UHGV virus genome: UHGV-0019040
Strand: one strand, 5' to 3'
DNA from: a virus
DNA: 44,391 nucleotides
The number at the start of each line of letters is the position of its first letter. Position 1 is the first letter of the stretch. Both the position numbers and the translations under genes were made by a program. Under the pieces are notes generated by a model, which saw only the letters and a program-made list of their open reading frames with translations, was not told the origin of the DNA and ran no database searches. Below are positions 1-41,397 of the stretch, one piece after another.

Positions 1-678
1 GAAGCAAAGATTGCGAGTAGCGCGGTGACAACAATGAAGATTGCGAGCGGTGCTGTTACAGAAGCAAAGATTGCAGATGGTGCTGTTACAGCAGCTAAGA
101 TTGCGAGTAGCACGGTGACAGCAGCTAAGATTGCGAGCGGTGCTGTTACAGAAGCAAAGATTGCAGACGGTGCTGTTACAGCAGCTAAGATTGCGAGCGG
201 CGCGGTGACAGCAGCTAAGATTGCGAGCGGTGCTGTTACAGAAGCAAAGATTGCGAGTAGCGCTGTTACAGAAGCAAAGATTGCGAGTAGCGCGGTGACA
301 GCAGCTAAGATTGCGAGCGGTGCTGTTACAGCAGCTAAGTGCAAGAACGGAAGTAACTTGTATATGCACTACTTACGTGTTAGCTCACCGAAAGTGATAG
401 CATATTTCTTATTACTTATAAAGGATAGTAAGTCAATTACTAGCTATGAAACACTGCTAAACACACTAAAAGCCTATCACTCTACTACGCCTATTGCATG
501 TAGTGGTAAGTATGGAACTACCAGTGATACGCCTAGTTATGGTTCGATTTACGCAATCTCAGCCGGGGCTACACATCTGTTTGTAGATGCTATTATTGGT
601 ACTGCATCTTATAGTTTACAATCTGTGAGTGAAGAAGCTACAGTCAAAGATAATGTAATCAAAGTCATACTTGATTAA
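1..678 (+). CDS. Tail fiber protein, C-terminal portion (5'-partial in window). The frame is continuous with 43645..44391 across the window junction if the contig is circular.
   Basis: Codon phase at position 1 matches the phase of the open frame that runs off the window end. About 10 tandem 10-aa repeats (consensus xAKIAsGAVT, 30-nt DNA period) continue the same repeat seen at 44300..44391. A non-repetitive C-terminal domain (about 120 aa) follows, likely a receptor-binding tip. Confidence 0.6.
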   Translation, partial: EAKIASSAVTTMKIASGAVTEAKIADGAVTAAKIASSTVTAAKIASGAVTEAKIADGAVTAAKIASGAVTAAKIASGAVTEAKIASSAVTEAKIASSAVTAAKIASGAVTAAKCKNGSNLYMHYLRVSSPKVIAYFLLLIKDSKSITSYETLLNTLKAYHSTTPIACSGKYGTTSDTPSYGSIYAISAGATHLFVDAIIGTASYSLQSVSEEATVKDNVIKVILD

Positions 679-6017: not shown

Positions 6018-6342
6018 TCTTACCTCCTGTCCTGCACTCTTTTGAGCAGAATATCTGCCACTTCCTGTTAGTGCTGAATGTCCTGCCGCACTTAGGACAG
6101 ACCTTATTCTGGGATTTTTTACCACCGTAATGGTATTTGTAGCGGCAAGATGCGGAGCAGTACAACTGATTGTAGAGTGTAGTCTTAAACTCTTTTCCAC
6201 ATACCCTGCATTTAGCTGTACGCATTACACTCTTTTTTGTATAGTAAGGCAGCTTCCTGCATACAGGGCAGCGCTTCTCTGCTCCGTATACCCTTACAAA
6301 GGACTTACCACATACTGTGCATTCTGCCATGCTGTTTTTCAT
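6010..6342 (-). CDS. Zinc-ribbon protein with three zf-FCS/TRASH-like repeats (CxxCGKxF ... (Y/F)CSxxCR)
   Basis: Three tandem Cys4 repeats: CTVCGKSF..RCPVCR; CRVCGKEF..YCSASCR; CPKCGRTF..FCSKECR. Stop overlaps the polA start. Confidence 0.5.
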   Translation of the reverse strand: MKNSMAECTVCGKSFVRVYGAEKRCPVCRKLPYYTKKSVMRTAKCRVCGKEFKTTLYNQLYCSASCRYKYHYGGKKSQNKVCPKCGRTFSTNRKWQIFCSKECRTGGKNV

Positions 6343-6956
6343 ACTATACTCCCATCAAAATCAGACAGGAACTTGTTTGTAAGCTTGTTTACTTTTTCCT
6401 CAAACATGGCAGAAAAATCCGGACTGCTGTTTATCATAAGCTGCAGCATTACATCGACCTCCTCTGCCACAATGTCCCGTGTCTCCTGCTCACGGTCTGT
6501 CCTTGTACTGTCAGCTATGGCTGTTATAAGCTCCCCACATTCCCCTGCCTCTATTATCCGCTGCTTGTCTTTTCCGTTGAATACAGGAAGATACTTTACA
6601 ATATTAGGGTACAGAGTTATATCAAGCAAGAGTCCCGGGACAATCGGCTTGTGCTGCTCTCCAAATACAATTACATGCTTTACGCCATGCTCCGACATAT
6701 AGCGCTGGCAGTTCTCACATGGAAAAAGGTTCAAGTATACAGTGCAGCCCTCTACAATATTGAGGCACTGCTCCGCGTGTATTGGTGTACAAGTATGGTT
6801 GCATTTTTTATTGCAGCTGTATGTTGTTGAATTATGGCTTACACCAATAATCCTGTGGTCAAGAGCAGACACAGCTGCGACCTGTTTATCTTTACAAGTT
6901 GACAACATCTTAACTGCATTCAGTATGAAATATACTTTCAAATCAAACTTTGTCAT
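6339..6956 (-). CDS. dCMP deaminase (N-terminal) fused to a MazG-like nucleotide pyrophosphohydrolase domain (C-terminal)
   Basis: HAEQC ... PCENC zinc-binding deaminase motifs. The C-terminal EAGECGELITAI ... EEVDVMLQLM resembles the MazG EExxE/D core. Confidence 0.75.
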   Translation of the reverse strand: MTKFDLKVYFILNAVKMLSTCKDKQVAAVSALDHRIIGVSHNSTTYSCNKKCNHTCTPIHAEQCLNIVEGCTVYLNLFPCENCQRYMSEHGVKHVIVFGEQHKPIVPGLLLDITLYPNIVKYLPVFNGKDKQRIIEAGECGELITAIADSTRTDREQETRDIVAEEVDVMLQLMINSSPDFSAMFEEKVNKLTNKFLSDFDGSIV

Positions 6957-7456
6957 TTTAACTCTCCACTAAGTATAAAAGAAAGGTCACATGCAAGGTG
7001 CCATGTATGTGGCAGGCCTGACTCCTCATCTACAGAATCAATATTGTTCCTGGCCTTCTCAGCATGCCTCAGGCACGCCTCCCAGTAATCCTGACGGCTC
7101 ATCATTTTCCAGCCATCCGGCGAGCCATATTTCTTGTTACCATATTCCCGTACCCGGGCTATGCACTCATTTATACCACGAGGTACAAGGGATAATGCAA
7201 GTTTGCCTTTTGTCTCCTTCGGTTTGCCTTTGACAGATACAATATTGTTTTTTAATATGTATCTTCCTATCCCAAGAATACTGTCAAGCCTGCCGCATAC
7301 TTCACATGGCACAGCCTTGATGCTGTCTACATATATATAGAATACATCATGCTCTAAGCTATACGTAATCTCAGCGTCAAAACCTGCAAGTCCCTTGTCA
7401 AGCATAACAGCGGTGCCCGCGTCAATATGCCCTTTGCAGCTGTCATTAATAATCAT
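6953..7456 (-). CDS. Hypothetical protein; the C-terminal half resembles phage dNTP pyrophosphohydrolase-like helical domains (KYG..DGW ... LRHAEKA ... W)
   Basis: ORF with RBS AAGGAGCTTAAAAATG. The C-terminal pattern YGNKKYGSPDGWK ... CLRHAEKARNNID ... HTWHLACDL; low-confidence domain call. Confidence 0.35.
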   Translation of the reverse strand: MIINDSCKGHIDAGTAVMLDKGLAGFDAEITYSLEHDVFYIYVDSIKAVPCEVCGRLDSILGIGRYILKNNIVSVKGKPKETKGKLALSLVPRGINECIARVREYGNKKYGSPDGWKMMSRQDYWEACLRHAEKARNNIDSVDEESGLPHTWHLACDLSFILSGELK

Positions 7457-14205: not shown

Positions 14206-14421
14206 CTATAAGTCTCCACTATCTAATAACTCCCAGTCCTCAGCCAGAAGGTCTACATCCTGGATATGCCATTGCGCTTTCCTACCCCCTTTCAACGGGC
14301 ATATCATAATCCTAGTATTCATCCCGTCTGACAATGAAAGGTAAGCTTTCCAGCTTCTGCGCTTTACACACTGCCCAAGTTTCAATGCGGCAATCGCCGT
14401 GCCAAATGATGTCCCTGTCAT
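14206..14421 (-). CDS. DUF2829 (Tad2-like) small protein; candidate anti-Thoeris signal sponge
   Basis: 71 aa from MTGTSF. The pattern FGTAIAALKLGQCVKRRSW ... (hydrophobic beta stretch) ... DLLAEDWELLD matches the remembered DUF2829 consensus (A.k.Gk.v.R..W ... DLLAEDWE). ATGA overlap with the upstream gene. Confidence 0.45.
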   Translation of the reverse strand: MTGTSFGTAIAALKLGQCVKRRSWKAYLSLSDGMNTRIMICPLKGGRKAQWHIQDVDLLAEDWELLDSGDL

Positions 14422-14729
14422 TGCTTTCCCCCTATGCCGTTCCAATGCCCATCGGGTCCTAGCCTCTTGCATCGTTTGCCCTCTGTACATTCAGGGCATA
14501 CAACAAGGCCTTCACCATTTGTGTAATGAAATATGTCCGGGTTCTTATGGTTCCCCCTTTCTACAAATGGAAATATATATAGCTGCTCAACAGGTATCAT
14601 CATAGTTCTGCCTACATATTTGTGGGGCAAGATACTTACACTATTGCCATTCTCTACAAGGTTCCTTATACAAGGAACTGTCCGCTTTACACGGTACGCG
14701 AACTCATGGACTGTAATATACCCATCCAT
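14418..14729 (-). CDS. Helix-turn-helix DNA-binding protein (excisionase/AlpA-like HTH); candidate transcriptional regulator
   Basis: Start at MDGYITV, with AGGAGG 7 nt upstream. ITVHEFAYRVKRTVPCIRNLVENG fits an HTH_17-type helix-turn-helix. A C-terminal CPEC ... CKR Cys cluster. Confidence 0.5.
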   Translation of the reverse strand: MDGYITVHEFAYRVKRTVPCIRNLVENGNSVSILPHKYVGRTMMIPVEQLYIFPFVERGNHKNPDIFHYTNGEGLVVCPECTEGKRCKRLGPDGHWNGIGGKQ

Positions 14730-15016: not shown

Positions 15017-15673
15017 TTATGTCTCCAGTATAGCCTTCATAAAGACCGGATATTTTTTCCGCAGCTCCTCTGTTAAAAGCCCAATAACATCGTGCATCCT
15101 TACAGAGTCAGCAGGCGCACTGCGTATTTTCAATATACTCCGCAGCTCACGGAAGTTTGTTGTGATATGTATAGTCGTGGCCAGACAGTTTGGCAGGACA
15201 TCTCTTGCTATGCCCGGAACTATACTCTTGTTAAGAAGCCTGCAGTATTCATCAGTAGCTACCTGGCAATACTTCTCAAGCTCAGTATTATAGTTGTCAG
15301 GAAGAGCATAATTGTTTTTGTATACATCTGTAGCGGGAAGCGCTATGAACTCCAGTGTCTCAAACCTGCTATAGTTTACATAGATTGTTGACTCCTGTGT
15401 AAACGCGCAGTGTCTATGCCGTACAAGAGCATGGCTTGTGCCACGGTCTGTCTTGACTGTAAAGGATATTGTCGCGTGCTCCAGGATGGAAGTATGACCT
15501 TTCTTTATACAGTTAAGTACACGGTTTTTGTTGGCCTCGGCAGAGTCCTCAGACCTGTAGCATTCACCCGCGGCCCTTCCACAAAGGTCCAGAAGCTCAG
15601 CCTCACTTTTGTTATGCTTACTTAAGCTTACTGACTGCTGTACAAGGACAGCCTTAAGTTTATTATTCATCAC
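15017..15673 (-). CDS. thyX: Flavin-dependent thymidylate synthase ThyX
   Basis: ThyX signature RHRHCAFTQES (RHRx7S), plus overall size and composition. Confidence 0.85.
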   Translation of the reverse strand: MMNNKLKAVLVQQSVSLSKHNKSEAELLDLCGRAAGECYRSEDSAEANKNRVLNCIKKGHTSILEHATISFTVKTDRGTSHALVRHRHCAFTQESTIYVNYSRFETLEFIALPATDVYKNNYALPDNYNTELEKYCQVATDEYCRLLNKSIVPGIARDVLPNCLATTIHITTNFRELRSILKIRSAPADSVRMHDVIGLLTEELRKKYPVFMKAILET

Positions 15674-17397: not shown

Positions 17398-17472
17398 ATC
17401 CTTCCAAATCTTTAATGTTGTCAGCGTAACAGCCTTTGCAGACAGGTGTAATCTTCTTTTCTATTTTACGCA
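17398..17472 (-). CDS. Possible 25-aa micro-ORF (MRKIEKKITPVCKGCYADNIKDLEG) with a GGAGG RBS
   Basis: ATG preceded by GGAGGCGC at 5-8 nt; a CxxC pair; below the size cutoff of the ORF track. Confidence 0.2.
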
Positions 17473-17545
17473 TACGCGCCTCCGTAACCCTATATATATA
17501 ATATTATATTTCACTATAAAGTAAAAGTAAATACAAGAAAAACGC

Positions 17546-17573
17546 GGAAGTGTATATTTTTATATACACTTCC
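17546..17573 (-). terminator. Perfect 12-bp-arm hairpin GGAAGTGTATAT-TTTT-ATATACACTTCC followed on the minus strand by GCGTTTTTCTTG; terminator after the Arg-rich gene (third member of the hairpin family)
   Basis: Inverted repeat and U-tract read directly. Confidence 0.5.
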
Positions 17574-17604
17574 TTCCTCTATGAATACCCCGTTGGATAC
17601 CCTA

Positions 17605-18876
17605 TTATACAGAAGGCCCTTTTCCATCCCCCGGCCTGTCCTTAAGCCTGTCCTCCCAGTACTTTCCTGACGCGCCTATACCCGGGCCCAGCATGCTGTC
17701 AAGGCGCCTGAACTGCTCCCTCCGGGCCTCGTCCTCAAGCCGGCGCTCAACCTTGACACGCCGCTTATACATCTGATGCTTGTGACACTTATAATACAGA
17801 TAAAGCCCGCGGCGCTCCGTCCAGTTCGCCGCGTTTATTGCGCTGGTGAAAAGACGCAATATACAAAGAGGGCGGAGGGCACTGTCAAGGTCCAAAGGAA
17901 GGCCGGCCTCGCGCCTCTTGTACAATATATCCAAGACCTGCGCCTTAACACGGCGGCGTATACCAGACAGGATTTTAAGAATCTCGGACCTCTCTGTACG
18001 GAGCAGGTTTATCTCACCCCTTACATCGTCCGGCAGTTCCTCACCATTATTGTACATGTCCACAAGTACAACAGAGTCTGATACGGCCTCATGAATGCGC
18101 GGCAACAGGTCAAGTGCGCCGCTCTCCGACATACATGGCTCCTCCAATAACATTTTCGAGAGCGTCCCGTCCTGCAGCGCGGAATAGAAACTGTCAAGGG
18201 TCCATGAGCCCTCGACTATTGTCCCCTCCTCTGTCTCGTTCCTCTGGACATCGCGCATTTTCTTGCCTCCGCCCTGGACTGTCCACAGTGCAATAGAAGG
18301 CCCTTTGAGGTATGCGCGCACGGCCATGACAATATCCTTACGCAAGGAGACAGCCCTGGCTCTCTCCTCCCTCCGCGTTGCCGCCCTCTGTTTGACAGCA
18401 CGGCCCTCGTCAGTGTCCCACCTTGTGCGGCGTGTCTTCCTCGCGGCGAGGACCTTCTCAGACACGGTATAGCCCCGGGACCCTTGACAAATGCTGTGCG
18501 TAAGCCCTGACTTCAGCCTGTACCTCTCCCTTGAGTACGCCTTCCTGTACTCACGTGCGCCCTCAGGACCCGGGGGAAAGTCTGAACGGGAAACACCCAC
18601 TACAATAGAACCACCTACAGCATCTACAATAGGACCGTGGGTATAATGCCTAGGTTTACGTGACAAATGCTGTGAGTAGGCATGACGCTGGGCCTCCTGT
18701 CTCCTGCCCCGTGACAAGTAGTATTTACGGCAATGGACAGGCAGCCCTGACAATATCTCACAATAAGCGGTGTACTCCTGAGAACCTGTGTCCGGTAAAC
18801 CTGACGCAGGGTCAATGAACCCGGGACTACTTCTTAATGTATCAAGACGACTGTATATATCCTTCTTGCAGTCCAT
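17605..18876 (-). CDS. Arg-rich basic protein encoded in a GC-rich island; candidate DNA-binding protein or replication initiator (function unknown)
   Basis: Start at MDCKKD, with TGGAGGTTTTGTTATG. About 423 aa, very R/K-rich. GC content is clearly higher than the rest of the genome. Directly adjacent to the iteron/palindrome region. Confidence 0.5.
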   Translation of the reverse strand: MDCKKDIYSRLDTLRSSPGFIDPASGLPDTGSQEYTAYCEILSGLPVHCRKYYLSRGRRQEAQRHAYSQHLSRKPRHYTHGPIVDAVGGSIVVGVSRSDFPPGPEGAREYRKAYSRERYRLKSGLTHSICQGSRGYTVSEKVLAARKTRRTRWDTDEGRAVKQRAATRREERARAVSLRKDIVMAVRAYLKGPSIALWTVQGGGKKMRDVQRNETEEGTIVEGSWTLDSFYSALQDGTLSKMLLEEPCMSESGALDLLPRIHEAVSDSVVLVDMYNNGEELPDDVRGEINLLRTERSEILKILSGIRRRVKAQVLDILYKRREAGLPLDLDSALRPLCILRLFTSAINAANWTERRGLYLYYKCHKHQMYKRRVKVERRLEDEARREQFRRLDSMLGPGIGASGKYWEDRLKDRPGDGKGPSV

Positions 18877-18990
18877 AACAAAACCTCCAGTTATACAGCA
18901 TACAATAAAGCATGCCGTATGCGGTATATTATAATAAAGTATGCCATACCATAAGGACAAGATTAAAACGCCCCCGGAAAAAACATACAA

Positions 18991-19870
18991 AATAAGGGCC
19001 CCCCGGGGGGCAAGAAAAACCCCCCCAGAAGAGAACGGGCGCGTCCTAAAGGACCTCCTGGAATAAAACAGGCATATCTTACTCCCCCCAATTTTTAAGG
19101 TCCTTAGAATGCGTATTTAAGGACCCCTGCAAAATGCGTACAAAATACGGCGTACAAAATACGGCCCTGAAAGGCCCGGGGACAAGGGGCCCCCGCGCCG
19201 CAAGGGGACAGCCTGACACGCCACAGGCCCCCCGCATTACAAGGGGACAGCCTGACACGCCACAGGCCCCCCGCATTACAAGGGGACAGACAAGGGGCCA
19301 GGGACCAGGGACAATAGTTATAATTTTACAAGGGAAGTTTATCCTGTATAATACCCGGGCCCCCGGGGGAAAATCCGGCCCCAAAAAAGGGCATACAAAT
19401 GTACGCCCCCTCCCGGGATTTGCAAGAAGAAAACAGATTATATAATACGCGGGTTTCCGGCGGAAATTTCCGCCCCCCAAAAAGGGTATACAAATGTACG
19501 CCCCTTTTTGTATACCCTTTTTGACGGCCCTTTTTAGGGCCCCTAAACCCTTGTAATACAAGGATTTATGAAAAATAGGTATACATTTGACGGCTATTTT
19601 TTTCACTAAATTTTAGGCCCTTCAAAATTGGCACTATACCTTGTATATTCTTCTTGTGATTCCTGAAACTATTGTCCCTTGTCCCCTGCCTTTCCTTTTA
19701 AAACTATTTTCACTATATTATAAACATCTTAGCAAGATATTCTAGCCAATTAACACTACATATAAACCCTCGTTACTGGTCCATTGTCAAGTATCAAGGG
19801 TCCATTGTCCTGCAGTAAGGGACAGTAGAACCCTGTTGCTTTGTTTATTGTACAGTGAAAAATGCTGTAT
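18991..19870. repeat. 880-bp non-coding, GC-rich, repeat- and palindrome-dense region: candidate origin of replication and/or regulatory hub
   Basis: Contains a 2 x 14-bp tandem (GCGTACAAAATACG, about 19136..19163). Two 39-bp tandem units plus a partial third (CAAGGGGACAGCCTGACACGCCACAGGCCCCCCGCATTA, about 19200..19300). Two copies of a roughly 43-bp direct repeat ending AAAAAGGG(C/T)ATACAAATGTACGCCCC. A 16-bp-arm inverted repeat AAAAAGGGTATACAAA ... TTTGTATACCCTTTTT (about 19479..19523). The palindrome GGCGGAAATTTCCGCC. CCCCCCGGGGGG runs. Several CCATTGTCC / GGACAATAG sites. The ORFs the track places here translate these repeats and are not credible. Confidence 0.6.
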
Positions 19871-20104
19871 TTACCATCCATACTGGACAAGTATGTACAC
19901 ACGGAGCACTAATCTATAGAGCAAAGGTGCAATAATCAATACCCCCGTGCCTATGGACAGTACAATCATGAGCCATTTCTTGTTTGTACATGCCCTTGAC
20001 GCTACAATCGCTGCAAGGATATACACAGCAAGCCATATAAGTATGAACATCATGAAGTATGTATCATACTGACGAACAAGCAGTTTGAATGTTATTGTAT
20101 TCAT
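19871..20104 (-). CDS. Small membrane protein (two transmembrane helices)
   Basis: Start set at the second MNTITFKLL copy (GGAGG 6 nt upstream). Hydrophobic helices FMMFILIWLAVYILAAIVA and LMIVLSIGTGVLIIAPLL. Confidence 0.45.
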   Translation of the reverse strand: MNTITFKLLVRQYDTYFMMFILIWLAVYILAAIVASRACTNKKWLMIVLSIGTGVLIIAPLLYRLVLRVYILVQYGW

Positions 20105-20221
20105 CTGCGGCCTCCAGTAGTGCTGTAGTTTAGTACAAGCAGTTTGAATGTTATTGTATTCATATATTCTCCTTGTACCAGGCATTACACAATAACTTGT
20201 GTATGATTGACTGTTGCAGCA

Positions 20222-20647
20222 TTATATATTCTCCTTGTACCAGGTCATGAACCATAAGGACTGCCTGGTGCTGCCGCATGTCCTGCGCAGGTCTATATTT
20301 ATTGTTGTCCCCTGAACCTCCAGTATATGCGGGAAGCCCTTTGTCTGCTTTACGTATAGTTCATTGCCCCTTGACCCTGCCCGTATGTTGAAGCGTTTCA
20401 GTAGTTTATTGTACACTGACAATAAATCAGTGTAGCATGCCCAGAGGGTTACCCGTCCTGTGACCGGGCTGAATGATGCTATGTCAGTGCCTTTGTAGGC
20501 AAGAGTGTACTCAGCGAGAAGTCCGGGCCCCGTGACCATGTACCTGCCGAAGCGCCCCGTCTTCCGGGACAGCATGGCGCTGAGGGCCTTGTCAGACATC
20601 TCCTGCCCTATTGTGTAGACCTTCTTATTTGATAGACCTGTGTTCAT
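20222..20647 (-). CDS. Hypothetical protein
   Basis: 141-aa ORF in the accessory cluster; no motif recognised. Confidence 0.45.
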   Translation of the reverse strand: MNTGLSNKKVYTIGQEMSDKALSAMLSRKTGRFGRYMVTGPGLLAEYTLAYKGTDIASFSPVTGRVTLWACYTDLLSVYNKLLKRFNIRAGSRGNELYVKQTKGFPHILEVQGTTINIDLRRTCGSTRQSLWFMTWYKENI

Positions 20648-20963
20648 TGTTGTTTTCCTCCATGTAACTTAGATAATCATCCCATCCTGTTGTCCGCTCG
20701 AAACGGAAAGCGTCAGTCCTTAGTTTCTTGAACCGTGAGCAGCGGAGCAGTACCCTTCTTCCACTTGAGTCTATGGCACTGACCCCTTGCTCCGTCATAC
20801 TGAAGAACCTTAACTGGCCATATATATAGTCATATGTAAGGCCCATATAACAGGCAAAGCGCCCGTCATAGAGTTCCTTGTATGTTATAAACGGGCCGAA
20901 GTCTCTAAGGGCAGTCAGTATGCTCTCCTGCTCATCAGGAGGCAGGTCATATTCCTTGACCAT
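20625..20963 (-). CDS. Hypothetical protein
   Basis: 112-aa ORF in the accessory cluster. Confidence 0.45.
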   Translation of the reverse strand: MVKEYDLPPDEQESILTALRDFGPFITYKELYDGRFACYMGLTYDYIYGQLRFFSMTEQGVSAIDSSGRRVLLRCSRFKKLRTDAFRFERTTGWDDYLSYMEENNNEHRSIK

Positions 20964-20964
20964 C

Positions 20965-21294
20965 TTACACCTCCATACATCTGGCTACAAGCCTGCGGAT
21001 TGAATTACATATTGTTGTTGGCCTTATACCTGGCGTGCAGAATCTCTTGACTACATCTGGGTCAGCCATGACATCCTGTATATCCTCAACAGTTGTGCCT
21101 TCCTGGATAAGTTGCATATTCTTGTCTATGCATGTCTTTGCTGTTGTGATATTTTCACTGATTATACGCCGTGCGGATATTTTCTCTTTGTCAGTGAGCA
21201 GCCCACTTCTCAACGCCCTCTTCATGTAATTGACTACAAGCATACACTCAATTACACCTTTTCTGTTTAGTTTGAACTCATAAAAATTACCCAT
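20965..21294 (-). CDS. Hypothetical protein (possible small regulator)
   Basis: Start at MGNFYEF, with AAGGAA 7 nt upstream; 109 aa. Confidence 0.4.
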   Translation of the reverse strand: MGNFYEFKLNRKGVIECMLVVNYMKRALRSGLLTDKEKISARRIISENITTAKTCIDKNMQLIQEGTTVEDIQDVMADPDVVKRFCTPGIRPTTICNSIRRLVARCMEV

Positions 21295-21343
21295 TGTATA
21301 TTCCTTCTGGGTGATATACCGCACCCAGCCGGTATTTACTTAT

Positions 21344-21529
21344 TTATTCTTCAGGCCTTTTGACGGCCTTCCAGCCATTAAGCAGCATTTTAATTCGCTT
21401 ATTGCTTCTGTTGAGCAGTTCTATGTTCCGTTCAACCTCTAGGCTGGATATTCTTAGTTCATTCAGCAGCCTTCCAACAGTCATGTTCAACTGCTCAAGT
21501 TTCTCTAAATTGCGTGTTACTTTGTCCAT
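21344..21529 (-). CDS. Hypothetical small coiled-coil protein
   Basis: 61 aa in the AT-rich segment; heptad-like LEKLEQLNMTVGRLLNELR. Confidence 0.35.
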   Translation of the reverse strand: MDKVTRNLEKLEQLNMTVGRLLNELRISSLEVERNIELLNRSNKRIKMLLNGWKAVKRPEE

Positions 21530-21549
21530 TGTCTATTCCCCCTTGACTA

Positions 21550-21891
21550 TTAAGCAGGCAGCCTTTCATAAATGTCTTGTTTTATATAGGCAGATATTTC
21601 ATCAACTGGAATGAGGTCATCATCTGGCTGGATTATGTCTTTGATTGTCACTTTATCAGTAATCAACTCTGTTAACTGATTGAGGGTTTCATAGTCACTT
21701 AAATCATCAGTCAGCATATCTTTCAGTTTATTGATTTCTTTACTGAGCGCAATATCTGTCTCAATCCACAATTTGCTGAATACATCATCAGCCATCTTGC
21801 CACTTTCCTGGTTTAACAGATACCTGACAATTTCAACCCTGATGATACTTTCTTTACAGTCAAGAAAGTTCTTAATAGATTTTATTTTCAT
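21550..21891 (-). CDS. Small acidic protein (D/E-rich C-terminal half); candidate DNA-mimic or anti-restriction protein
   Basis: 113 aa in the AT-rich segment; high Asp/Glu content (DDLSDYETLNQLTELITD ... DDDLIPVDEISAY). Confidence 0.4.
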   Translation of the reverse strand: MKIKSIKNFLDCKESIIRVEIVRYLLNQESGKMADDVFSKLWIETDIALSKEINKLKDMLTDDLSDYETLNQLTELITDKVTIKDIIQPDDDLIPVDEISAYIKQDIYERLPA

Positions 21892-21933
21892 ATAATACCC
21901 CTCTGGTCAATATACAGTGGCCAGCCTGTGTTA

Positions 21934-21993
21934 GTCATCAGACAGTAAGTCATCAGACAGTAAGTCATCAGACAGTAAGTCATCAGACAGTAA
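21934..21993. repeat. Four perfect tandem copies of the 15-bp unit GTCATCAGACAGTAA in an intergenic spacer
   Basis: Read directly: gtcatcagacagtaa x4. Confidence 0.85.
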
Positions 21994-22044
21994 ATTATAA
22001 TTATCAAGTGAGATTAATTTCACTTAATCCCACTTAATTTATTC

Positions 22045-22386
22045 TTAACAGTTGTCTCTGTTATTAAATAATATAACAGACAGATTTTCTTCAAGTTTAT
22101 TAGTTACTTCTAGGTAGTCAATATTTCCACCAAGAAACATAAACTTAGCCAGTGCATAATCAGACAGTATACTGACTACTTGCTTTATTAAATCATCTGA
22201 TGTGTCAGCAGTTATTTTTACATCAAGCAACTGCAATGCCCGGTCAATTAAATCTAACTGCTGATTCCAGACTGCTACAGAAAAATCATCTTGTAATTCT
22301 CCTGATGTGTTTAACTTCTGACTAGTTACAGTTAATATAATTAACTGCTGCTTAATCAGTTTTAATTCAGTTAATTCATTAATCAT
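22045..22386 (-). CDS. Small acidic protein; accessory or anti-defence candidate
   Basis: 113 aa in the AT-rich segment, acidic (ELQDDF ... TADTSDDLIK). Confidence 0.4.
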   Translation of the reverse strand: MINELTELKLIKQQLIILTVTSQKLNTSGELQDDFSVAVWNQQLDLIDRALQLLDVKITADTSDDLIKQVVSILSDYALAKFMFLGGNIDYLEVTNKLEENLSVILFNNRDNC

Positions 22387-22507
22387 TTTATTTTCCTTCT
22401 AGCAGATATACCGCGGCTAGCCGGTTTTAATATTATTAATTAATCCTAATAAATTAATTAATCTTTAATTAATTAGCGCAAAGGCTTAATTATTTGCGCC
22501 AATTAAT

Positions 22508-22550
22508 TAAAAATTAAAAATTAACCGGGGATTAAGTCCCCCGGTTAATC
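22508..22550 (-). terminator. Rho-independent terminator: perfect hairpin TTAACCGGGGGA-ttaag-TCCCCCGGTTAA followed on the minus strand by TTTTTAATTTTTAA
   Basis: 12-bp perfect stem and U-tract read directly, immediately downstream of gene 22553..22864. The flanking region also carries several TTAATTAA palindromes and a GCGCAAA ... TTTGCGC hairpin. Confidence 0.55.
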
Positions 22551-22552
22551 CA

Positions 22553-22864
22553 TTACTTTTTATAGTATTTTCCATTTTTTACTTTATAGTTTTCTTTCAA
22601 ATACCCCTCTTCTTTCAAATAATCCTCTTTGCTGATTTCTATCCAATCAACTGCTCCCAACCTGCCCAACCTGCTTATTAATTTATTACTATTAACTTCA
22701 TCCAACTCCCCGTTAATTAACAACAATAAATCCAAATCTTTTCTGTAACCACAAATCAAACTTTTTAAACTCTTCCCATTTCCACCATTTTCAATTTTTA
22801 CTTCACAATCATTAATAATTTTTTCCAAATTACTAATACACTTCTTAATTAATTCCTTATTCAT
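22553..22864 (-). CDS. Hypothetical Lys-rich small protein; first gene of the leftward early/accessory operon
   Basis: Start at MNKELIKK, with AAGGAG 7 nt upstream; very AT-rich. Confidence 0.45.
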   Translation of the reverse strand: MNKELIKKCISNLEKIINDCEVKIENGGNGKSLKSLICGYRKDLDLLLLINGELDEVNSNKLISRLGRLGAVDWIEISKEDYLKEEGYLKENYKVKNGKYYKK

Positions 22865-22888
22865 AATTAACTCCTTAACTCTCAACAA

Positions 22889-23232
22889 TTATTATTATAC
22901 AATAATTAATTATTATGTCAACAACTTTTTTAAAATAATTTTAATTTATAACCCATTTTTACTGTTTTCACTATACACCTGTACCCCTAACTAAATAGGT
23001 CATTAGGCACGAAACCATAAAGTCTAAATCCAGGCCCCTTGCCAGAAATAAAACAGGCCCATAATCCAGGGGCCATTGTCCCGCGCCGCTCTTGCCCTCT
23101 TTGTAAGCTCTTGCTGAAAATAAAACGGCCTCATTTGTTTTCCTGGCTTTATTGTAGTCCCGGGGCCCGGTTTACTTGTCTGGGCTTTTACGGTATACTT
23201 GTAGCTAAACAATGGATTTTAAGGAGGCTGTT
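22889..23232. promoter_or_regulatory. Divergent promoter/control region between the leftward (minus) and rightward (plus) transcription units
   Basis: 343-bp gene-free region flanked by outward-facing gene starts. Contains a CCATTGTCC site (about 23071..23082) like those in the 19.3-19.8-kb region, paired AATCCAGG(C/G)CCC repeats, and an AT-rich block. Confidence 0.4.
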
Positions 23233-23637
23233 ATGTTTGACAGGGAGCTCTCAGATATAAAAGATACAGTACAGAACGCTTTATCCAGCGGTATGTCTTA
23301 TTCAGACGCGCTGTTATTGTCAGGAGCAAGCGACGAGCAGATAGAGGCGCTTGACAAAGACACAATATTCCAGAAGGAATGCTCACAGGTAGCAAGACAG
23401 CTGGAGCTTGAGATGCTACGAACATTGAAGGATACAATAGAAATTCAGGCCTCAAAGGGCAAGGACCACGGTGTAACCTGGCTTTTGTCTAAGATTAACC
23501 CTTCAAGATGGGGCGGCAGTGACGATGATGCAGGGGCAAATGTCGGTTCTATTGTAATAAATACACAGCCGGTGGACTTCAAGAACCCCGATAACGCTGT
23601 GGAAGTATTTGACGGGGAAGAAGAAATTGAAGAGTAA
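23233..23637 (+). CDS. Putative terminase small subunit
   Basis: First gene of the rightward unit, immediately upstream of and overlapping the large terminase. RBS TAAGGAGGctgttATG. Acidic C-terminus. Confidence 0.4.
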   Translation: MFDRELSDIKDTVQNALSSGMSYSDALLLSGASDEQIEALDKDTIFQKECSQVARQLELEMLRTLKDTIEIQASKGKDHGVTWLLSKINPSRWGGSDDDAGANVGSIVINTQPVDFKNPDNAVEVFDGEEEIEE

Positions 23638-25798
23638 CACGCAGTCAGGGCGCTTCAAGCTTAAGAATGAGCTTGAGTTGTCTTCGTTTATACATCAGAG
23701 CGCCCTCTTACAAGCCATAGATGACTATAAGGACAGGAGTTATTTCTTCCTGCTGGGCGGCTATGGCTGCCTTACAGGGGATTCTTTACTAGATACGAAA
23801 AAAGGCCCTATGCCTTTACACAGCTTTAATGGGGGCTATGTAAAGACTATAGACCTCACCACAAAAAAGACATTGTATAAATACTGTACAAGGCCGGCTG
23901 TATACAATAGGCCTGTGTTTACAGTAAATCTTTCAGGGGATGAGCGCTCTTCCATTCAGTGCAATAGTGCTCACCAGCTCTATTGCCTCTCTGGTAATTG
24001 TCTACCTTTGGCATTCTTGCTTTCTCATCACGCGTTGCATGAAGTTTCTGTATTCCTTCAACACTTACATTGTGAGGAATACCAGCATGCTCAAGGGCAA
24101 GATGTTCACCATTACTTTGGAAAAGTTCTAGGTTCTCTGCTCTGTTGTCTAATGTGTTTCCATTCTTATGGTGAACAACCTCAGATTTATTTAGAAGACG
24201 GCCTAGTTTCGACTCCATTACAAGGCGGTGTTCATACACATAGCCCTTGTTTGAGTAAGAATGCTGCCGGAATCTTATCTTCATGTACCCGTCTTTATCG
24301 ACAATTGCACCGCCTTTATAAGACCCATTCAGGTGGCCAGTCGGACCGCCTCTTGGGAGCTCTCCGCGGAGCTTGTACTTCCATATTGTATCGCCGACTA
24401 CTCCTTGACTTTTACCAAGCCTGTCGGCAATCTCTCTTGTTGTCAGGCCTTGCTCAATCAGTTCCTGCAGGACAGGAACCCACTTCTTACATAGGAATCC
24501 CATACGTACCTCCTGTAAAGATTATAGCTGGTGACGGGGGTTTTGTAAATATCGAATCCGCCTATTATAGCGGAAGGAAAGATATATATGAGCTGCATGT
24601 TCCGTCGACACATAACTACATAGCGAATGGTATACTGCATCATAACTGTGGAAAGTCGTTTACAGGTGTACTTGCGATACTAAAATTGTATAACATGTTC
24701 AAAGGCCATGAGGTAACTGTTGGTATTGGGGGCACAAGCCAGACATTGCTGCGGCTCACTTTATTGTCAGACCTGTTCAAGGTCCTTAACAATGCCCACA
24801 TAAAGTACCACCATAACAAGCAGGAGCATGTAATCACTATAGGTACAGTGCATTTTGTGTATATAAACTGCTCAAACCCTGATGACATATTTGCGTATAA
24901 CTTCACCGCGTTTATATTTGACGAGCTTGACGAGCTGCCGCAGCAGACAGCTGTGGACGCGTTCAAAGCGGTGCAGGAGCGTTCCAGGGTCCTTTGTCCA
25001 GACGGAAGGAAGAGTATATTCATAGGGCTTACGACGGCGCAAGGGCTCCGCGGCTGTTACCAGATTGTACAGATGCTGAAAGAGAAGCGCAGTAAGTATG
25101 TCCTTGTGCGCGGACTGACAAAGAACAACACGACCCTTGACCCTGACTATGTAAAAAGGCTCTATGACCTCTACAGCAAGGAGGAGCAGGAGGCTTTCCT
25201 TGAGGGCAAGTTTGTGAACCTTACCACAGGGCGCGTGTACAAGGACTTTGATGAAAGGACATGTGTTTACGACCCCTCAAAAATATTGTATAATAATGAG
25301 CCTGTGACAGTGGGCCAGGACCTCAACAGCGGGTTCTCAAAGGCCTGCGCCATATTTGAGAGGGACGGTATCTACTATATCTGCCGGGACTTCTCATTCA
25401 ATATTGTGGGTGACGCGCCGCGTGAGCTGCGTGATACATTTCCTTGTAGCCAGATAGACTGGTGGCCTGACGCCTCCTCTAAGGAGATTATGGCAGGGTA
25501 CCAGCGGGAGATAGCCGAGGCTGGCATAATTCTTCACCAGCCTCCTGTAAACCCTAGCGTAAATGAGCGTATACTTGTTGTCAATAAGCTGTTCAAGACA
25601 GGCAAGATGCTCGTGTCTAGGGACTGCAAGGAGCTGATAATGGCGCTTAAGACACGTCAGTTCGACATGAACGGCAAGCCTGAGAAGGGAAAAGGGCCTA
25701 AGGACCCTGACCATATCTGTGATGCTCTTGAGTACGGGGTATGGAACAAGAGCAATATCAAGTCCCTGCGTGAGGCCCTTGACAGGCTTTTCAGCTGA
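23609..25798 (+). CDS. terL: Terminase large subunit, interrupted by an intein inside the Walker A P-loop (extein about 436 aa)
   Basis: N-extein ends ...FFLLGGYG, C-extein begins CGKSFTG, so splicing restores the Walker A sequence GGYGCGKS. Walker B AFIFDELDE. Nuclease-domain region toward the C-terminus. Confidence 0.85.
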   Translation: MTGKKKLKSNTQSGRFKLKNELELSSFIHQSALLQAIDDYKDRSYFFLLGGYGCLTGDSLLDTKKGPMPLHSFNGGYVKTIDLTTKKTLYKYCTRPAVYNRPVFTVNLSGDERSSIQCNSAHQLYCLSGNCLPLAFLLSHHALHEVSVFLQHLHCEEYQHAQGQDVHHYFGKVLGSLLCCLMCFHSYGEQPQIYLEDGLVSTPLQGGVHTHSPCLSKNAAGILSSCTRLYRQLHRLYKTHSGGQSDRLLGALRGACTSILYRRLLLDFYQACRQSLLLSGLAQSVPAGQEPTSYIGIPYVPPVKIIAGDGGFVNIESAYYSGRKDIYELHVPSTHNYIANGILHHNCGKSFTGVLAILKLYNMFKGHEVTVGIGGTSQTLLRLTLLSDLFKVLNNAHIKYHHNKQEHVITIGTVHFVYINCSNPDDIFAYNFTAFIFDELDELPQQTAVDAFKAVQERSRVLCPDGRKSIFIGLTTAQGLRGCYQIVQMLKEKRSKYVLVRGLTKNNTTLDPDYVKRLYDLYSKEEQEAFLEGKFVNLTTGRVYKDFDERTCVYDPSKILYNNEPVTVGQDLNSGFSKACAIFERDGIYYICRDFSFNIVGDAPRELRDTFPCSQIDWWPDASSKEIMAGYQREIAEAGIILHQPPVNPSVNERILVVNKLFKTGKMLVSRDCKELIMALKTRQFDMNGKPEKGKGPKDPDHICDALEYGVWNKSNIKSLREALDRLFS
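23768..24646 (+). mobile_element. Intein (293 aa) in terL. Hint blocks A/B are at its N-terminus and blocks F/G at its C-terminus. The central region has no recognisable sense-strand domain.
   Basis: Begins CLTGDSLLDT (block A) and ends DIYELHVPSTHNYIANGILHHN, followed by Cys (blocks F/G, HN|C). The open frame is maintained throughout. The central 180 aa are H/C/L/Q-rich low complexity. Confidence 0.8.
23919..24503 (-). CDS. HNH homing endonuclease with an N-terminal HTH, encoded antisense within the terL intein
   Basis: GYVYEHRLVME ... VVHHKNGNTLDNRAENLEL is a canonical HNH_3 motif. N-terminal LTTREIADRLGKSQ helix-turn-helix. Its own expression signals sit on the minus strand: TATAAT, then AGGAGG, then 5 nt, then ATG. 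Confidence 0.75.
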   Translation of the reverse strand: MGFLCKKWVPVLQELIEQGLTTREIADRLGKSQGVVGDTIWKYKLRGELPRGGPTGHLNGSYKGGAIVDKDGYMKIRFRQHSYSNKGYVYEHRLVMESKLGRLLNKSEVVHHKNGNTLDNRAENLELFQSNGEHLALEHAGIPHNVSVEGIQKLHATRDEKARMPKVDNYQRGNRAGEHYCTEWKSAHPLKDLL

Positions 25799-39010: not shown

Positions 39011-40023
39011 GCGCTTTATCAAAACTTAGAAAACTGCTTACAGGAAGCGCCGGTCTTTATGACAGGTATGTAAACATAAAGCTGTCGTCAAGCAAGACAA
39101 AACGCTCTGTAAGCATAGCCACACCTAAGTCAGGCAGGAAGCCGAACATAGCGGTACAGATGAGGACCAATCCCTCTGACATGGTGTCACAGTTTACTAT
39201 AAGTATCATGAACTGCTCACTGGGGATAAACCTGAGCCAGTTTGATACTATAACTGTCGTAATGGGATATTACTCAAGCCTTGAGAGCTTCGCGTTTACA
39301 GGTGAGATTCTGCAGATATTCCAGGAGTCCCCTAACCCTAATGGCGTTATAACCATGCAGGGTAATGTAGGGTTCACTACGGCGTACAGCTCGGCCTCTA
39401 CTTTGTCTGTGACATTCCCGCCGGCGGCGCTGCCTGCTGTCGTTATAATACAGAATGTTGTAAGTCAGATAAATACAGCGCTGAGCAAGATAAACAAGTC
39501 CGCCGCGCTTGTACTTGACATTACAAGTATGCCTGTACAGTGGCAGTCTGTTGTTATAAACCTTGCGGGGAGCACAGAGCAGTTCACAAATGTATATGAG
39601 GCGGTAAGCTGGCTCAACAGCCTTTTTATAAGCTATGTATACAGCAAGGATAACACTGTCTCCGCGCCTCCAATACATCTTACTATTGACGGCAAGAGGC
39701 TTGTTGTGTCAAGTACAGTGGCCGGGCCCTCCGTGCCTGTGCTGCCACTGCTTTCTACTGTAAGCAGTATATCTGTTTCAGGTATACACGTATCTATAAC
39801 ATGCCCTTTTGTACCGACAATAAGGGCCAACACATGCTTTTATCTCGCAGCCCAGAACTTTACCGCCATGCTCAATGTGAACGGCATAAGCGAGCTTGGT
39901 TTTATGTCCCTGATAAAGGCAAATTATACTGAGGTCAAGTTCGCCACGGTAGGCACGAACCAGATGCTTATTGACGGTATCAAGCTTGACCCTGGAAAAG
40001 TGCTAGGCAAGGAGCTGCAATAA
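39007..40023 (+). CDS. Baseplate hub-like protein (hypothetical)
   Basis: 338 aa, overlapping starts and stops with its neighbours, positioned before the spike gene. Confidence 0.4.
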   Translation: MSALSKLRKLLTGSAGLYDRYVNIKLSSSKTKRSVSIATPKSGRKPNIAVQMRTNPSDMVSQFTISIMNCSLGINLSQFDTITVVMGYYSSLESFAFTGEILQIFQESPNPNGVITMQGNVGFTTAYSSASTLSVTFPPAALPAVVIIQNVVSQINTALSKINKSAALVLDITSMPVQWQSVVINLAGSTEQFTNVYEAVSWLNSLFISYVYSKDNTVSAPPIHLTIDGKRLVVSSTVAGPSVPVLPLLSTVSSISVSGIHVSITCPFVPTIRANTCFYLAAQNFTAMLNVNGISELGFMSLIKANYTEVKFATVGTNQMLIDGIKLDPGKVLGKELQ

Positions 40024-40904
40024 TGAATGGAATAGAGCTTAACGCCGCCTTGAACGGTATGAACCAGTTCAATATGGTGCAGGGCATAGCTAAAAACCTG
40101 AGGATTATTGACTATGCAAAAGTGACAATGGTCAAGGGGAAACTTATTGACGCCGCCCGGGGGACACATAAATACACAAACATTGAGGTCCTCAATATAG
40201 GCGGGAACGGTTATTCACTGAATATTGTCCCGGCTGTAGGGGACTCTGTCCTTCTCTTGTCGTGCTGTACTGCCATAGTAGACACAGCGAAGATGCAGGA
40301 GAACAAAGTCGTAGACAGCTACAGCGCCGCCACACTTAAATGCATACCATTGTGCAGCACTGACAATAAGACGGCCGCGGGTGTATTGACAATAGACATG
40401 AATGGTGTCAAGTTTGTACACGCGCCTAACGGGCAGGAGCAGATGTCTGTTACATACCTGAACTCTGACGCCTCTGTCGTGGTAAAGGGCAAGGGGCCAT
40501 TGACGGCTGATATAAACGCCGGCGACGACGGCTCTAACAATATACAGGTCAACGCCGAAGGTATAAACGTCACAGACATAAAGGGCAACAATATTGTATG
40601 CGGAGAGGACGGGGTGGCCGTCATGGACCTTAATGGTAACACTGTAACATTGAACGGGGACGGCATAGACATAAAGGACCTGAGCGGGAATGATGTGGCT
40701 ATGACAAGTGACGGTACAACTGTCACAGATGCCAACGGAAACAAGGTGGAGATGACAAGTTCCGGCATGACCCTGCAGGACGCGAACGGAAACAAGGCAG
40801 AGATGACAAGCAGCGCCTTCAACCTTACGGCGGCTACAGGGTGCAAAGTCGAGATGGGCGCCTCCGGGACGGTCATAAACGGGAAGCTTACAGTTCTTCC
40901 TTAG
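40023..40904 (+). CDS. Baseplate central spike protein (gpV/gp5-like: OB-fold N-terminus, beta-helical repeat C-terminus)
   Basis: The C-terminal 150 aa consist of short repeats (MDLNGNTVTLNGDGIDIKDLSGNDVAMTSDGTTVTDANGNKVEMTSSGMTLQDANGNKAEMTSS) typical of spike beta-helices. Confidence 0.5.
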   Translation: MNGIELNAALNGMNQFNMVQGIAKNLRIIDYAKVTMVKGKLIDAARGTHKYTNIEVLNIGGNGYSLNIVPAVGDSVLLLSCCTAIVDTAKMQENKVVDSYSAATLKCIPLCSTDNKTAAGVLTIDMNGVKFVHAPNGQEQMSVTYLNSDASVVVKGKGPLTADINAGDDGSNNIQVNAEGINVTDIKGNNIVCGEDGVAVMDLNGNTVTLNGDGIDIKDLSGNDVAMTSDGTTVTDANGNKVEMTSSGMTLQDANGNKAEMTSSAFNLTAATGCKVEMGASGTVINGKLTVLP

Positions 40905-41016
40905 ATATACATTTTTAAGGTCTCCAAGGATGCGTTTTAAAGGACCTTTTGGGAATACCTGGTATAATATGCCTCGGTATAATTTTAAGATAAAGTAAAT
41001 ATTTAAGGGGGACATT

Positions 41017-41397
41017 ATGCCGGGGAAGCCTATAGCAGTACAGGGCTGCACAATACTTATAAACGAAGGGGCCATTCAGCCGCCGGCGCCGCTTGTACCT
41101 GTAACCCCGCCGGATTCCAACATACTTGCCGGTGGTAAGCCGTGCTATTTCGGTAACCTGCAGGTCACTGTCCCGTCGGGTACATCTGGCCCTGCCGGCA
41201 CGCTCACAGCCTCGGTAACTGTTACCATAACAGCGACTGGCACGAATGTCAAGGACGCCACAGGCCCGGCTGTCTTGATGGGTGATAAGTCCTCAGGCAC
41301 TGACACAGGGTCGTTCCAGGCGGGGACCGTGACGACAAGTGTACCGCTCCTGCTCGTGATTACGAACGCAGGACAGACAGATGTGCTGGTAGGATAG
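41017..41397 (+). CDS. PAAR-like spike-tip protein (tentative)
   Basis: 126 aa following the spike gene. GKPIAVQGC / AGGKPCYFGN / VLMGDKSSG resemble degenerate PAAR repeats. Confidence 0.3.
   Translation: MPGKPIAVQGCTILINEGAIQPPAPLVPVTPPDSNILAGGKPCYFGNLQVTVPSGTSGPAGTLTASVTVTITATGTNVKDATGPAVLMGDKSSGTDTGSFQAGTVTTSVPLLLVITNAGQTDVLVG

Follow-up and report, generated by a model that had tools for sequence, protein, structure and literature searches.

The closest described counterparts of the region reported here are convergent promoters, replication origins and stem-loop/promoter cassettes. Coliphage 186/P2 pR-pL and pCF10 prgQ/prgX are convergent-promoter switches or antisense pairs, and RNA I and RNA II of pAD1 par share a bidirectional terminator. 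Among replication origins, lambda ori, P1 oriR and those of the plasmid RepA type are iteron origins, and those represented by T4 ori(uvsY)/ori(34) and ColE1 RNA II depend on transcription. The primary origin of T7, also transcription-dependent, has the tandem promoters phi1.1A and phi1.1B (PMC8373140). In T4-type phages, PeSL and PmSL are composite terminator-promoter cassettes (PMC2839356; PMC4122927); the PeSL cassettes mark sites of gene gain and loss, and the PeSL stem-loop of phage nt-1 has the form A3-4 G3 - loop - C3 T3-4 (PMC4122927). In the virus genome UHGV-0019040, a gene-free stretch of ~1 kb (18877-19870, hereafter the gap) lies directly upstream of ORF423, the gene of an orphan arginine-rich protein. 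We analyzed this gap within the whole stretch of DNA available (the window, 44,391 nucleotides), which is a complete phage genome of ~44 kb with ~45% GC.

The gap is about 2% of the genome and its longest gene-free stretch. It is located within a leftward operon, with small early genes (19871-22900) on one side and, on the other, ORF423 and the nucleotide-metabolism and replication genes after it. We assign an even chance to the reading in which the gap serves as a conserved early/middle transcription control hub built of stem-loop and promoter cassettes. The initial annotation had offered a replication origin or a control hub; the hub part was borne out by promoters, terminators and operator-like boxes that stand in the same order in 10 genomes, while an iteron origin found no positive support.

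Conservation of the gap

The DNA context of the ORF423 family was fetched for eleven of the proteins and for two IMG/VR loci. Every locus reaching far enough possesses a gene-poor gap of 0.75-1.2 kb upstream of the ORF423 homolog, and the gap is kept in distant relatives (L008, 44% protein identity; L019, E = 8e-29; L020, E = 7e-11). In 10 genomes, namely the window and nine close relatives, the order and strand of the elements are identical. Across relatives, the core (19531-19725) is 81-92% identical, a 189-nt block at the ORF423 side 70-87%, and the two direct-repeat units A and B 70-81%. The synonymous divergence of the flanking genes between the window and close relatives is dS 0.4-0.65, so that the constraint on the non-coding core is about that on the neighboring coding sequence. 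The elements of the gap are under purifying selection. Compact phage genomes seldom keep 1 kb free of genes, and here such a stretch is under selection across an uncultured gut-phage lineage.

The absence of a credible gene, as originally stated, was confirmed: the open reading frames (ORFs) 19079-19606 (minus strand) and 19134-19445 (plus strand) have only fragmentary matches in the relatives, scattered over changing frames. Small conserved ORFs were likewise ruled out, since reading frames are not kept across the relatives. The description of the region as GC-rich holds for its left half (18950-19550, 47-68% GC, with one 100-nt window of 42%) but not for 19550-19800 (29-41%), and the whole gap has 46% GC, compared with about 45% for the genome. 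A scan detected 12 promoter-like sites, versus 4.9 +/- 2.0 in shuffled sequences, and the predicted folding of the central part beats all 200 shuffles on both strands (z = -4.5 and -3.9).

Predicted promoters and their upstream boxes

The promoter-like sites and the boxes preceding them are as follows (the genes around the gap are on the minus strand).

19325-19352, plus strand: P_A, TTTACA N16 TATAAT, 11/12 matches to the sigma-70 consensus, pointing against the surrounding genes
19419-19446, plus strand: P_B, TTTGCA N16 TATAAT, 10/12 matches, second antisense-pointing promoter, direct-repeat unit B
19633-19660, minus strand: Pm2, ATCACA N16 TATAGT, homologous to and convergent with P_A
19701-19726, minus strand: Pm1, TGTTTATAATATAGTGAAAATAGTTT, read TATAGTGAAAATAG; TTTACC N16 TATAGT in relatives
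19842-19861, plus strand: P_C, inverted copy of the Pm1 -10 region TGTTTATTGTACAGTGAAAA, divergent from Pm1
19308-19320, plus strand: GGGACAATAGTTA box, 4 nt upstream of the P_A -35
19666-19678, minus strand: GGGACAATAGTTT box, 5 nt upstream of the Pm2 -35

P_A and P_B were the two best sites of the scan, one per copy of a 48-nt direct repeat. The best promoter of the gap is on the anti-gene strand in 10/10 genomes; nine of them carry the P_A type there (TTTACA N16 (T/G)ATAAT), and the tenth, L016, has only the P_B type (TTTGCA N16 TATAAT). In the alignment at P_A, ATAAT and TGTAAA are invariant and the 16-nt spacing is fixed, while the spacer sequence varies. Invariant hexamers at a fixed spacing around a free spacer are, as judged from this alignment, the footprint of a putative promoter on the anti-gene strand. 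Pm1 and Pm2 were recovered on the gene strand in the relatives. The TATAGTGAAA motif of Pm1 is also present at 22966-22975, upstream of an AT-rich island near an early control region, and at 17509-17518, before the next operon.

The 12-bp inverted sites reported at the outset, GGGACAATAGTT / AACTATTGTCCC, are present at 19308-19319 and 19667-19678, 347 nt apart, and the pair extends to 24 nt with 88% complementarity. The sites are inverted because the two convergent homologous promoters, P_A and Pm2, are each preceded by the same box, GACAATAG, at a distance of 4-5 nt from the -35. A 24-nt inverted repeat flanking 347 bp with two same-facing promoters also brings to mind an invertible switch, in which the GGGACAATAGTT-flanked segment with P_A and P_B would flip and turn ORF423 on or off. 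We consider this very improbable: a single orientation was found in all 10 independent assemblies, no serine or tyrosine recombinase domain was detected in 40 ORFs scanned across the window, and the repeat is already explained by the upstream box of the two promoters. Boxes of the form GACARTRG number 13 in the whole window against 5.3 expected; five lie within 520 bp (19310-19828) and one at 23073.

Another short motif, the octamer TTGTAYRC, occurs 27 times in the genome versus 6.9 +/- 2.6 expected, with six copies in 18898-19515; it includes the palindrome GTATAC.

Hairpins and putative terminators

The hairpins of the gap are listed below, from left to right; where no strand is given, none was assigned.

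18985-19172, minus strand: block with a constant length of 189-190 nt across 9 genomes, with the hairpin hpG, TAAGAT, leader GCCTGTTTTATTCC, helix CCAGGAG...CTTCTGG and T3
18998-19011, minus strand: T3, GC hairpin GCCCCCCGGGGGGC followed by CCTTATTTTG, putative gene-strand intrinsic terminator
19060-19081, minus strand: promoter part of a cassette, -10-like TAAGAT followed by leader motif ATGCCTGTTTTATTCC
19099-19125, minus strand: hpG, hairpin GGTCCTTAAATACGCATTCTAAGGACC with conserved loop AA(A/G)nA(C/T)GC(A/G)
19163-19176, minus strand: terminator-like hairpin, GGCCTTTCAGGGCC followed by GTATTTTGTA
19383-19408, minus strand: T2, hairpin GGGCGTACA/TGTATGCCC followed by TTTTTT, putative gene-strand terminator inside direct-repeat unit A
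19459-19474: palindrome GGCGGAAATTTCCGCC, where the P_B transcript is predicted to start
19478-19523: T1, perfect hairpin with 17-bp arms between an A-run and a T-run, terminator-like both ways
19527-19542: hairpin GGCCCTTTTTAGGGCC, within a 13-nt periodic CAAAAAGGG array
19544-19568, minus strand: hpK, near-perfect palindrome AAA(C/T)CCTTGTATTACAAGGGTTT, nearly invariant in relatives and recognizable in L008 and L019
19571-19601: hpT, hairpin AAAAATAG...CTATTTTT whose loop of 14-15 nt, GCCGTCAAATGTATAC, is invariant

A GGCCC hairpin is also among the gap hairpins. Terminator-like hairpins on the gene strand account for four of four in the window, six of six in L003 and four of seven in L014. 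Along the direction of transcription, T3 comes just before the ORF423 promoter, and its GGGCCC...GGGCCC hairpin and TTATTTTGTATG are conserved in the relatives. The equivalent of T2 in L014 is GGCGTACATTTGTATGCC CTTTTT, and that of T1 in L003 was called as a terminator. At the position of the GGCGGAAATTTCCGCC palindrome, a hairpin of different sequence is retained in L014 and L017.

The hairpins could also be read as functional structured non-coding RNAs acting in trans or in cis, for example put-/nut-like elements hpG and hpK that allow read-through of downstream terminators, or an RNA partner of ORF423. The loops are conserved like the stems, which points to sequence-specific recognition by a protein or by RNA-RNA pairing. 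Hand inspection found compensated changes in the hpG stem (GGTCC/GGACC versus GGTCT/AGACC in the 5' copy of L014 and GGTCCC/GGGACC in L019) and in the GC palindrome after T1 (L014 and L017), and the hpK variants of L006, L012, L013, L016, L008 and the window retain pairing solely through G-U on the gene strand. In addition, hpG-type hairpins are oriented with transcription at two loci, one on each strand, the folding z-scores given above are strongly negative, and many terminators follow in series downstream. Against these observations, the hpG variants of L006 and L017 break a gene-strand pair and favor the opposite strand, and ORF423 shows no recognizable RNA-binding fold. A minimum-free-energy comparison favored the gene strand at 12/13 loci; this preference was discounted because the G+T-rich composition of the gene strand alone yields such a bias. 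Rfam 15 gave no match at the gathering score in the whole window and, in 17400-20300 at E up to 10, nothing beyond chance-level matches. Neither tRNA nor tmRNA was found, and no RNA target complementary to the hpT loop or to hpK was found elsewhere in the genome. We regard this RNA reading as quite unlikely.

A proposed transcription control hub

In the control hub that we favor, leftward transcripts from upstream and from Pm1 and Pm2 would meet the serial terminators T1, T2, the 19163-19176 hairpin and T3. Serial terminators on the gene strand, together with ORF423's own promoter, would insulate the early block from ORF423. P_A and P_B, which resemble strong host-type promoters, would fire toward Pm2 and Pm1, and the transcripts would converge over hpT-hpK-T1. 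This convergence is expected to yield short sense and antisense RNAs that are highly structured and some 70-170 nt long, in addition to transcriptional interference. The GACAATAG boxes and the related boxes (19781-19828, 23073) may be operator or activator sites of a putative phage regulator, which would set the balance between the two directions. The hub may also have a role in early/middle timing.

Several points weigh against this proposal. All promoters and terminators of the hub are consensus matches, and the -35 of Pm1 is poor in the window. No regulator gene for the hub was identified. The hairpin loops are as invariant as the stems, which simple terminators would not require. For the two best-conserved blocks, RNAalifold gave covariation terms of -1.3 and +1.2 kcal/mol, about zero for the core and the 189-nt block alike; covariation is not useful here because the stems hardly vary. 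The tally of G-T versus A-C mismatches in the hairpins (18:13) is not significant and picks no strand. The last two results also speak against the RNA reading.

A dispersed stem-loop and promoter cassette

The hairpin hpG and the adjoining promoter part (hpG + TAAGAT/TATAAT + ATGCC, 19060-19125) constitute a stem-loop adjoining a sigma-70-like promoter. Related elements were found elsewhere in the window.

40908-40973, plus strand: second cassette copy, hpG stem-loop GGTCTCCAAGGATGCGTTTTAAAGGACC ... promoter TGGTATAATATGCC, between the late genes 40023-40904 and 41017-41397
23045-23080, minus strand: leader motif GCCTGTTTTATTTC (leader at 23045-23058) and GGGACAATGG box, in the early control region adjoining the terminase genes

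The copy at 40908-40973 directly precedes the ribosome-binding site and start codon of a late gene. The two full copies are on opposite strands, each on the local coding strand, so that the cassette is dispersed in the orientation of transcription. The module is found in the relatives as well: in L016 the 19-kb position is occupied by the TGGTATAATATGCC version, an additional or relocated cassette stands at the far end of the gap in L014 and L008, and the distant relative L002 has a copy at another locus. Even with the 23045 leader, the total in the window is only 2-3 copies, far below that of T4-type phages.

The cassette is associated with insertions and deletions, namely gene insertions in L016 and L019, cassette moves in L014 and L008 and repeat expansion. 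Small-gene insertion is typical of cassette-rich plastic regions and is in line with the proposed hub. In another reading, the gap would be the residue of a hyperplastic region, made of leftover promoter and terminator cassettes of lost accessory genes with no collective function beyond termination. In its favor, the gaps of L016 and L019 contain small genes, L008 and L014 show duplicated or moved cassettes, and tandem repeats expand and contract. PeSL cassettes are likewise gene gain/loss sites in T4-type phages (PMC4122927). A residue would nevertheless hardly show a core conserved at 81-92% with a divergence far below neutral, an element order fixed in 10 genomes, and a gap of similar size where the ORF423 homolog is barely alignable. 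We think it decidedly unlikely.

The GGGACAATGG box and the GCCTGTTTTATTTC leader are shared with 22960-23200, a second GC-rich non-coding region, which adjoins the terminase genes and is a candidate for early control and/or packaging.

Repeats and the question of a replication origin

Three tandem repeats, none with an assigned strand, lie in the gap.

19136-19163: 14-bp tandem repeat, two copies here and one to four in relatives (four in L015)
19187-19289: tandem repeat of 39 bp, with 2.3 perfect copies and a further, diverged one, and a CCCCTTG...CGGGGGG hairpin per unit
19778-19828: 21-bp x2 repeat, two GACAATGG boxes plus an inverted GACAGTAG box, varying among relatives

The initial annotation had considered these and other repeats to fit an origin with initiator binding sites. 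The 14-bp tandem (GCGTACAAAATACG, 19136-19163) and the 39-bp tandem (2.3 copies at 19201-19289, preceded by the diverged copy from 19187) are 100% identical between copies, and the palindrome GGCGGAAATTTCCGCC and the blocks CCCCCCGGGGGG (18999-19010) and CCCCCGGGGG (19360-19369) were found as described. Other dimensions had to be corrected. The direct repeat given as ~43 bp is present (19362-19409 and 19457-19504, 83% identical) but is actually 48 nt long; the perfect inverted repeat has arms of 17 nt (19478-19494 and 19507-19523) and a spacer of 12 nt, not 16-bp arms and N10; and the two direct GGTCCATTGTC sites (19778 and 19799) are spaced by 21 nt, not 20. When the relatives were compared, the hairpin and promoter elements proved to be kept, whereas the tandem repeats proposed as iterons (14, 39, 7, 13-15 and 21 bp) expand, shrink or vanish. 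The 39-bp repeat differs in copy number or is absent, being missing in half of the relatives. Since the repeats are variable or absent in close relatives, they are not conserved iterons.

A replication origin, whether iteron-type or transcription-primed, could coexist with the control hub; we regard it as a tentative possibility and rather unlikely. Several features of the locus speak in its favor. The gap is the longest gene-free stretch in the genome and is dense in direct and inverted repeats and hairpins, and its GC-rich half adjoins the 29-41% GC stretch 19550-19800. A strand bias is seen for GGCCGT, G-runs and T-runs. PolA, an AEP primase and helicases are among the proteins of the phage, and the gap and ORF423 are linked across very distant relatives in the manner of origin-initiator pairs; since the flanking synteny is conserved too, this linkage is not specific evidence. 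The tandem promoters recall phi1.1A and phi1.1B of the T7 primary origin (PMC8373140). In such an origin, transcripts from P_A/P_B or G-rich leftward transcripts would serve as the primer or R-loop for the family-A polymerase, and ORF423 or another protein would bind the boxes. Promoters directed into the initiation zone are indeed predicted (P_A and P_B), a feature that is necessary for transcription priming but not specific to it.

Other results speak against an origin. Instead of the three or more phased direct repeats of ~17-22 bp that an iteron origin would have, we found 14 bp x2, 39 bp x2.3, 21 bp x2 and 13 bp x3, and these periods form no phased array of at least three conserved sites. 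There are no DnaA boxes in the region. As to an adjacent AT-rich unwinding element, the stretch 19550-19800 might qualify by its GC content of 29-41%, but conserved promoters and hairpins occupy it and no 13-mer-type repeats were seen. Cumulative GC skew, which had been suggested as a check, passes through the gap without inflection and has its only turn near 23 kb, where the strand switches; skew tracks the gene strand in this genome. No recognizable Rep/O/DnaA-type initiator is encoded next door, as ORF423 has no sequence or fold similarity to initiators in the libraries searched and lies 7-14 kb from the replication genes. Moreover, one conserved module is a promoter cassette that also stands between late genes. 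The claim of an iteron origin with initiator sites has no positive support, given that no conserved phased iterons, DnaA boxes, skew change or initiator-family neighbor were found. If the hub were nonetheless an origin, it would provide a compact ori cassette for engineering such phages.

A packaging (pac/cos) or partition site had been mentioned as another role for a repeat-rich non-coding stretch, and the contigs of L004, L005, L007 and L018 end inside the region. These breaks fall at repeats, as assembly breaks do. The gap is about 3.3-4 kb from the terminase genes (23212-25798, with the gene in the small-terminase position at 23212), which have their own GC-rich non-coding region (22960-23200), so that packaging is unlikely here, and no ParA or ParB genes were found. 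We hold either role to be hardly probable.

Type III toxin-antitoxin loci have tandem 34-45-nt repeats followed by a terminator and a ToxN/AbiEii-type endoribonuclease gene. A ToxI-like system was considered and rejected, given that the 39-bp repeats are missing in half of the relatives and ORF423 has no ToxN-type or PADLOC match.

ORF423 and its transcription unit

The gene downstream of the gap and its predicted signals are as follows.

17605-18876, minus strand: ORF423, orphan Arg-rich all-helical protein of 423 aa, directly downstream of the gap in every relative
18931-18960, minus strand: ORF423 promoter-like site, TTGTCC N18 TATTAT (TATAATATGCC in relatives), followed by a GGAGG ribosome-binding site
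17546-17573, minus strand: intrinsic terminator at the end of the ORF423 unit, 12-bp stem followed by a T-run

The dN/dS of ORF423 is about 0.28, so it is a real gene. Its family is tiny: 31 proteins were found in 5.8 billion, and a full HMMER scan of 1.8 billion representatives (clusters at 50% identity) gave only eight proteins at E <= 0.001, the top four of which are clearly related. Searches of ORF423 against the Pfam, PHROGs, PADLOC and PDB-sequence libraries returned no matches. The AlphaFold2 model (pLDDT 73) is all-helical, and no fold match was found in the PDB or BFVD libraries. ORF423 stands out as an orphan family with the gap as its only fixed partner.

The initial annotation had placed this gene first in a replication operon, which could not be demonstrated. 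With T3 upstream and its own promoter, ribosome-binding site and end terminator, ORF423 appears to be a separate, terminator-bounded transcription unit.

Gap and ORF423 could together form a functional module of an undescribed kind, either a transcription-primed origin or a hairpin system; we consider this unlikely. One possibility is that convergent host-type promoters and purine-rich A5G3-4 tracts would prime PolA, and another is that hpG/hpK and the Arg-rich ORF423 protein would control read-through of the serial terminators.

The motif R-x-DFP-x-(G/T)-PEG-x(2,3)-Y-x(3)-Y occurs once in ORF423 (residues 96-120) and twice in each of three unrelated small proteins (P0034-P0036, 117-135 aa). 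It appears to be an uncharacterized basic repeat module.

Genome context

A coding tandem repeat of 30 bp (90-bp super-unit) is present at both ends of the window (1-339 and 44311-44391), so that the contig represents a circularly permuted complete genome; it is broken inside the repeat-containing gene 25-678 (plus strand). From ~23000 down to 3800 the genes are on the minus strand, and from 23212 on the structural genes are on the plus strand. The minus-strand set comprises small early ORFs, ORF423, ThyX, a Tad2-like protein, an SNF2 helicase, an AEP primase, a UvrD-like helicase, a MazZ-like domain, dCMP deaminase and PolA. Neither an integrase nor a repressor turned up in the scanned ORFs, and the phage, in which no lysogeny genes were found, is probably lytic. 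The strong GGAGG ribosome-binding sites suggest a Firmicute host.

Searches of cultured-phage DNA and proteins with the gap and ORF423 gave no match. The nearest cultured phages show 23-33% identity in the portal or primase only and are too remote for an annotated origin to be transferred. Pattern scans of public collections with the conserved motifs returned only contigs already known or chance matches (L009 and probably L011); no bacterial genome matched in these scans, which thus provided no host or prophage context.

Several other features of the genome were observed. The stretch 21990-22960 is an AT-rich island (28-33% GC versus 45% for the genome) with three small minus-strand ORFs, a perfect 12/12 promoter sequence TTGACA N16 TATAAT at 22921-22894 and a strong bidirectional terminator-like hairpin at 22518-22551; it looks like a recently acquired moron. 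Just downstream of the island, the intergenic stretch 21933-21993 carries 4.1 copies of a perfect 15-bp tandem repeat, AGTCATCAGACAGTA. A direct repeat of ~30 bp, ACAAGCAGTTTGAATGTTATTGTATTCAT (20074-20107 and 20134-20167), duplicates the start region of the small membrane-like gene 19871-20185, and L015 and L017 likewise carry duplicated copies in this place.

The large terminase ORF (23609-25798) encodes 729 aa, compared with 436 aa for the L003 homolog, and a weak match to an intein-splicing domain precedes its Terminase_6N domain (start residue 347). An intein or some other insertion could account for the extra length. A MazZ-like dATP/dGTP diphosphohydrolase N-terminal domain (6953-7456), dCMP deaminase (6339-6956) and ThyX (15017-15673) occur together, which suggests remodeling of the nucleotide pool and possibly base modification. 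A protein with a Tad2-like (anti-Thoeris) domain (14206-14490) is kept in all relatives.

Comparison with known systems

The sequence family of the gap is new, while its building blocks are ordinary. For a phage group without a cultured member, the gap provides a testable map of putative promoters, terminators and operator boxes.

Like the 186/P2, pAD1 and pCF10 systems, the gap has facing promoters a few hundred base pairs apart with a shared terminator-like hairpin between them, and short overlapping transcripts are expected. Unlike in those systems, there is no lysogeny module, toxin peptide or known regulator, each side has two promoters, and the function is deduced from sequence alone.

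With iteron origins the gap shares direct repeats adjoining the gene of a basic protein, and AT-poorer and AT-richer halves. It differs from them in that neither the sequence nor the number nor the phase of the repeats is conserved among relatives and that the neighboring protein has no initiator-like domain. With the T7, T4 and ColE1 origins it shares tandem promoters in a non-coding stretch, a family-A DNA polymerase encoded by the phage, A/G-rich tracts (CAAAAAGGG) downstream of the promoters and a lower-GC stretch nearby. In contrast to those origins, the gap has host-type promoters facing against the genes, the phage has no RNA polymerase of its own, and the A-run/G-run motifs can be read equally well as the U-tracts of gene-strand terminators.

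The PeSL cassettes are alike in architecture. In both cases, modules of a stem-loop and a sigma-70-like promoter are repeated within one genome and tied to insertions and deletions, gain and loss of small genes and local plasticity; AAAAAGGG...CCCTTTTT resembles the stem-loop of nt-1, and the 40.9-kb copy has the full layout of stem-loop, -10, ribosome-binding site and start codon. The likeness is one of architecture only: the phage belongs to another lineage than the T4-type phages, and its cassette sequences appear unrelated to theirs. Here, unlike in those phages, several cassettes stand within 1 kb with no genes between them, units A and B have the promoter opposite to the terminator direction of the stem-loop, and the array is conserved as a whole rather than plastic. 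The region shows that mobile regulatory cassettes of a PeSL-like kind are not confined to T4-type phages.

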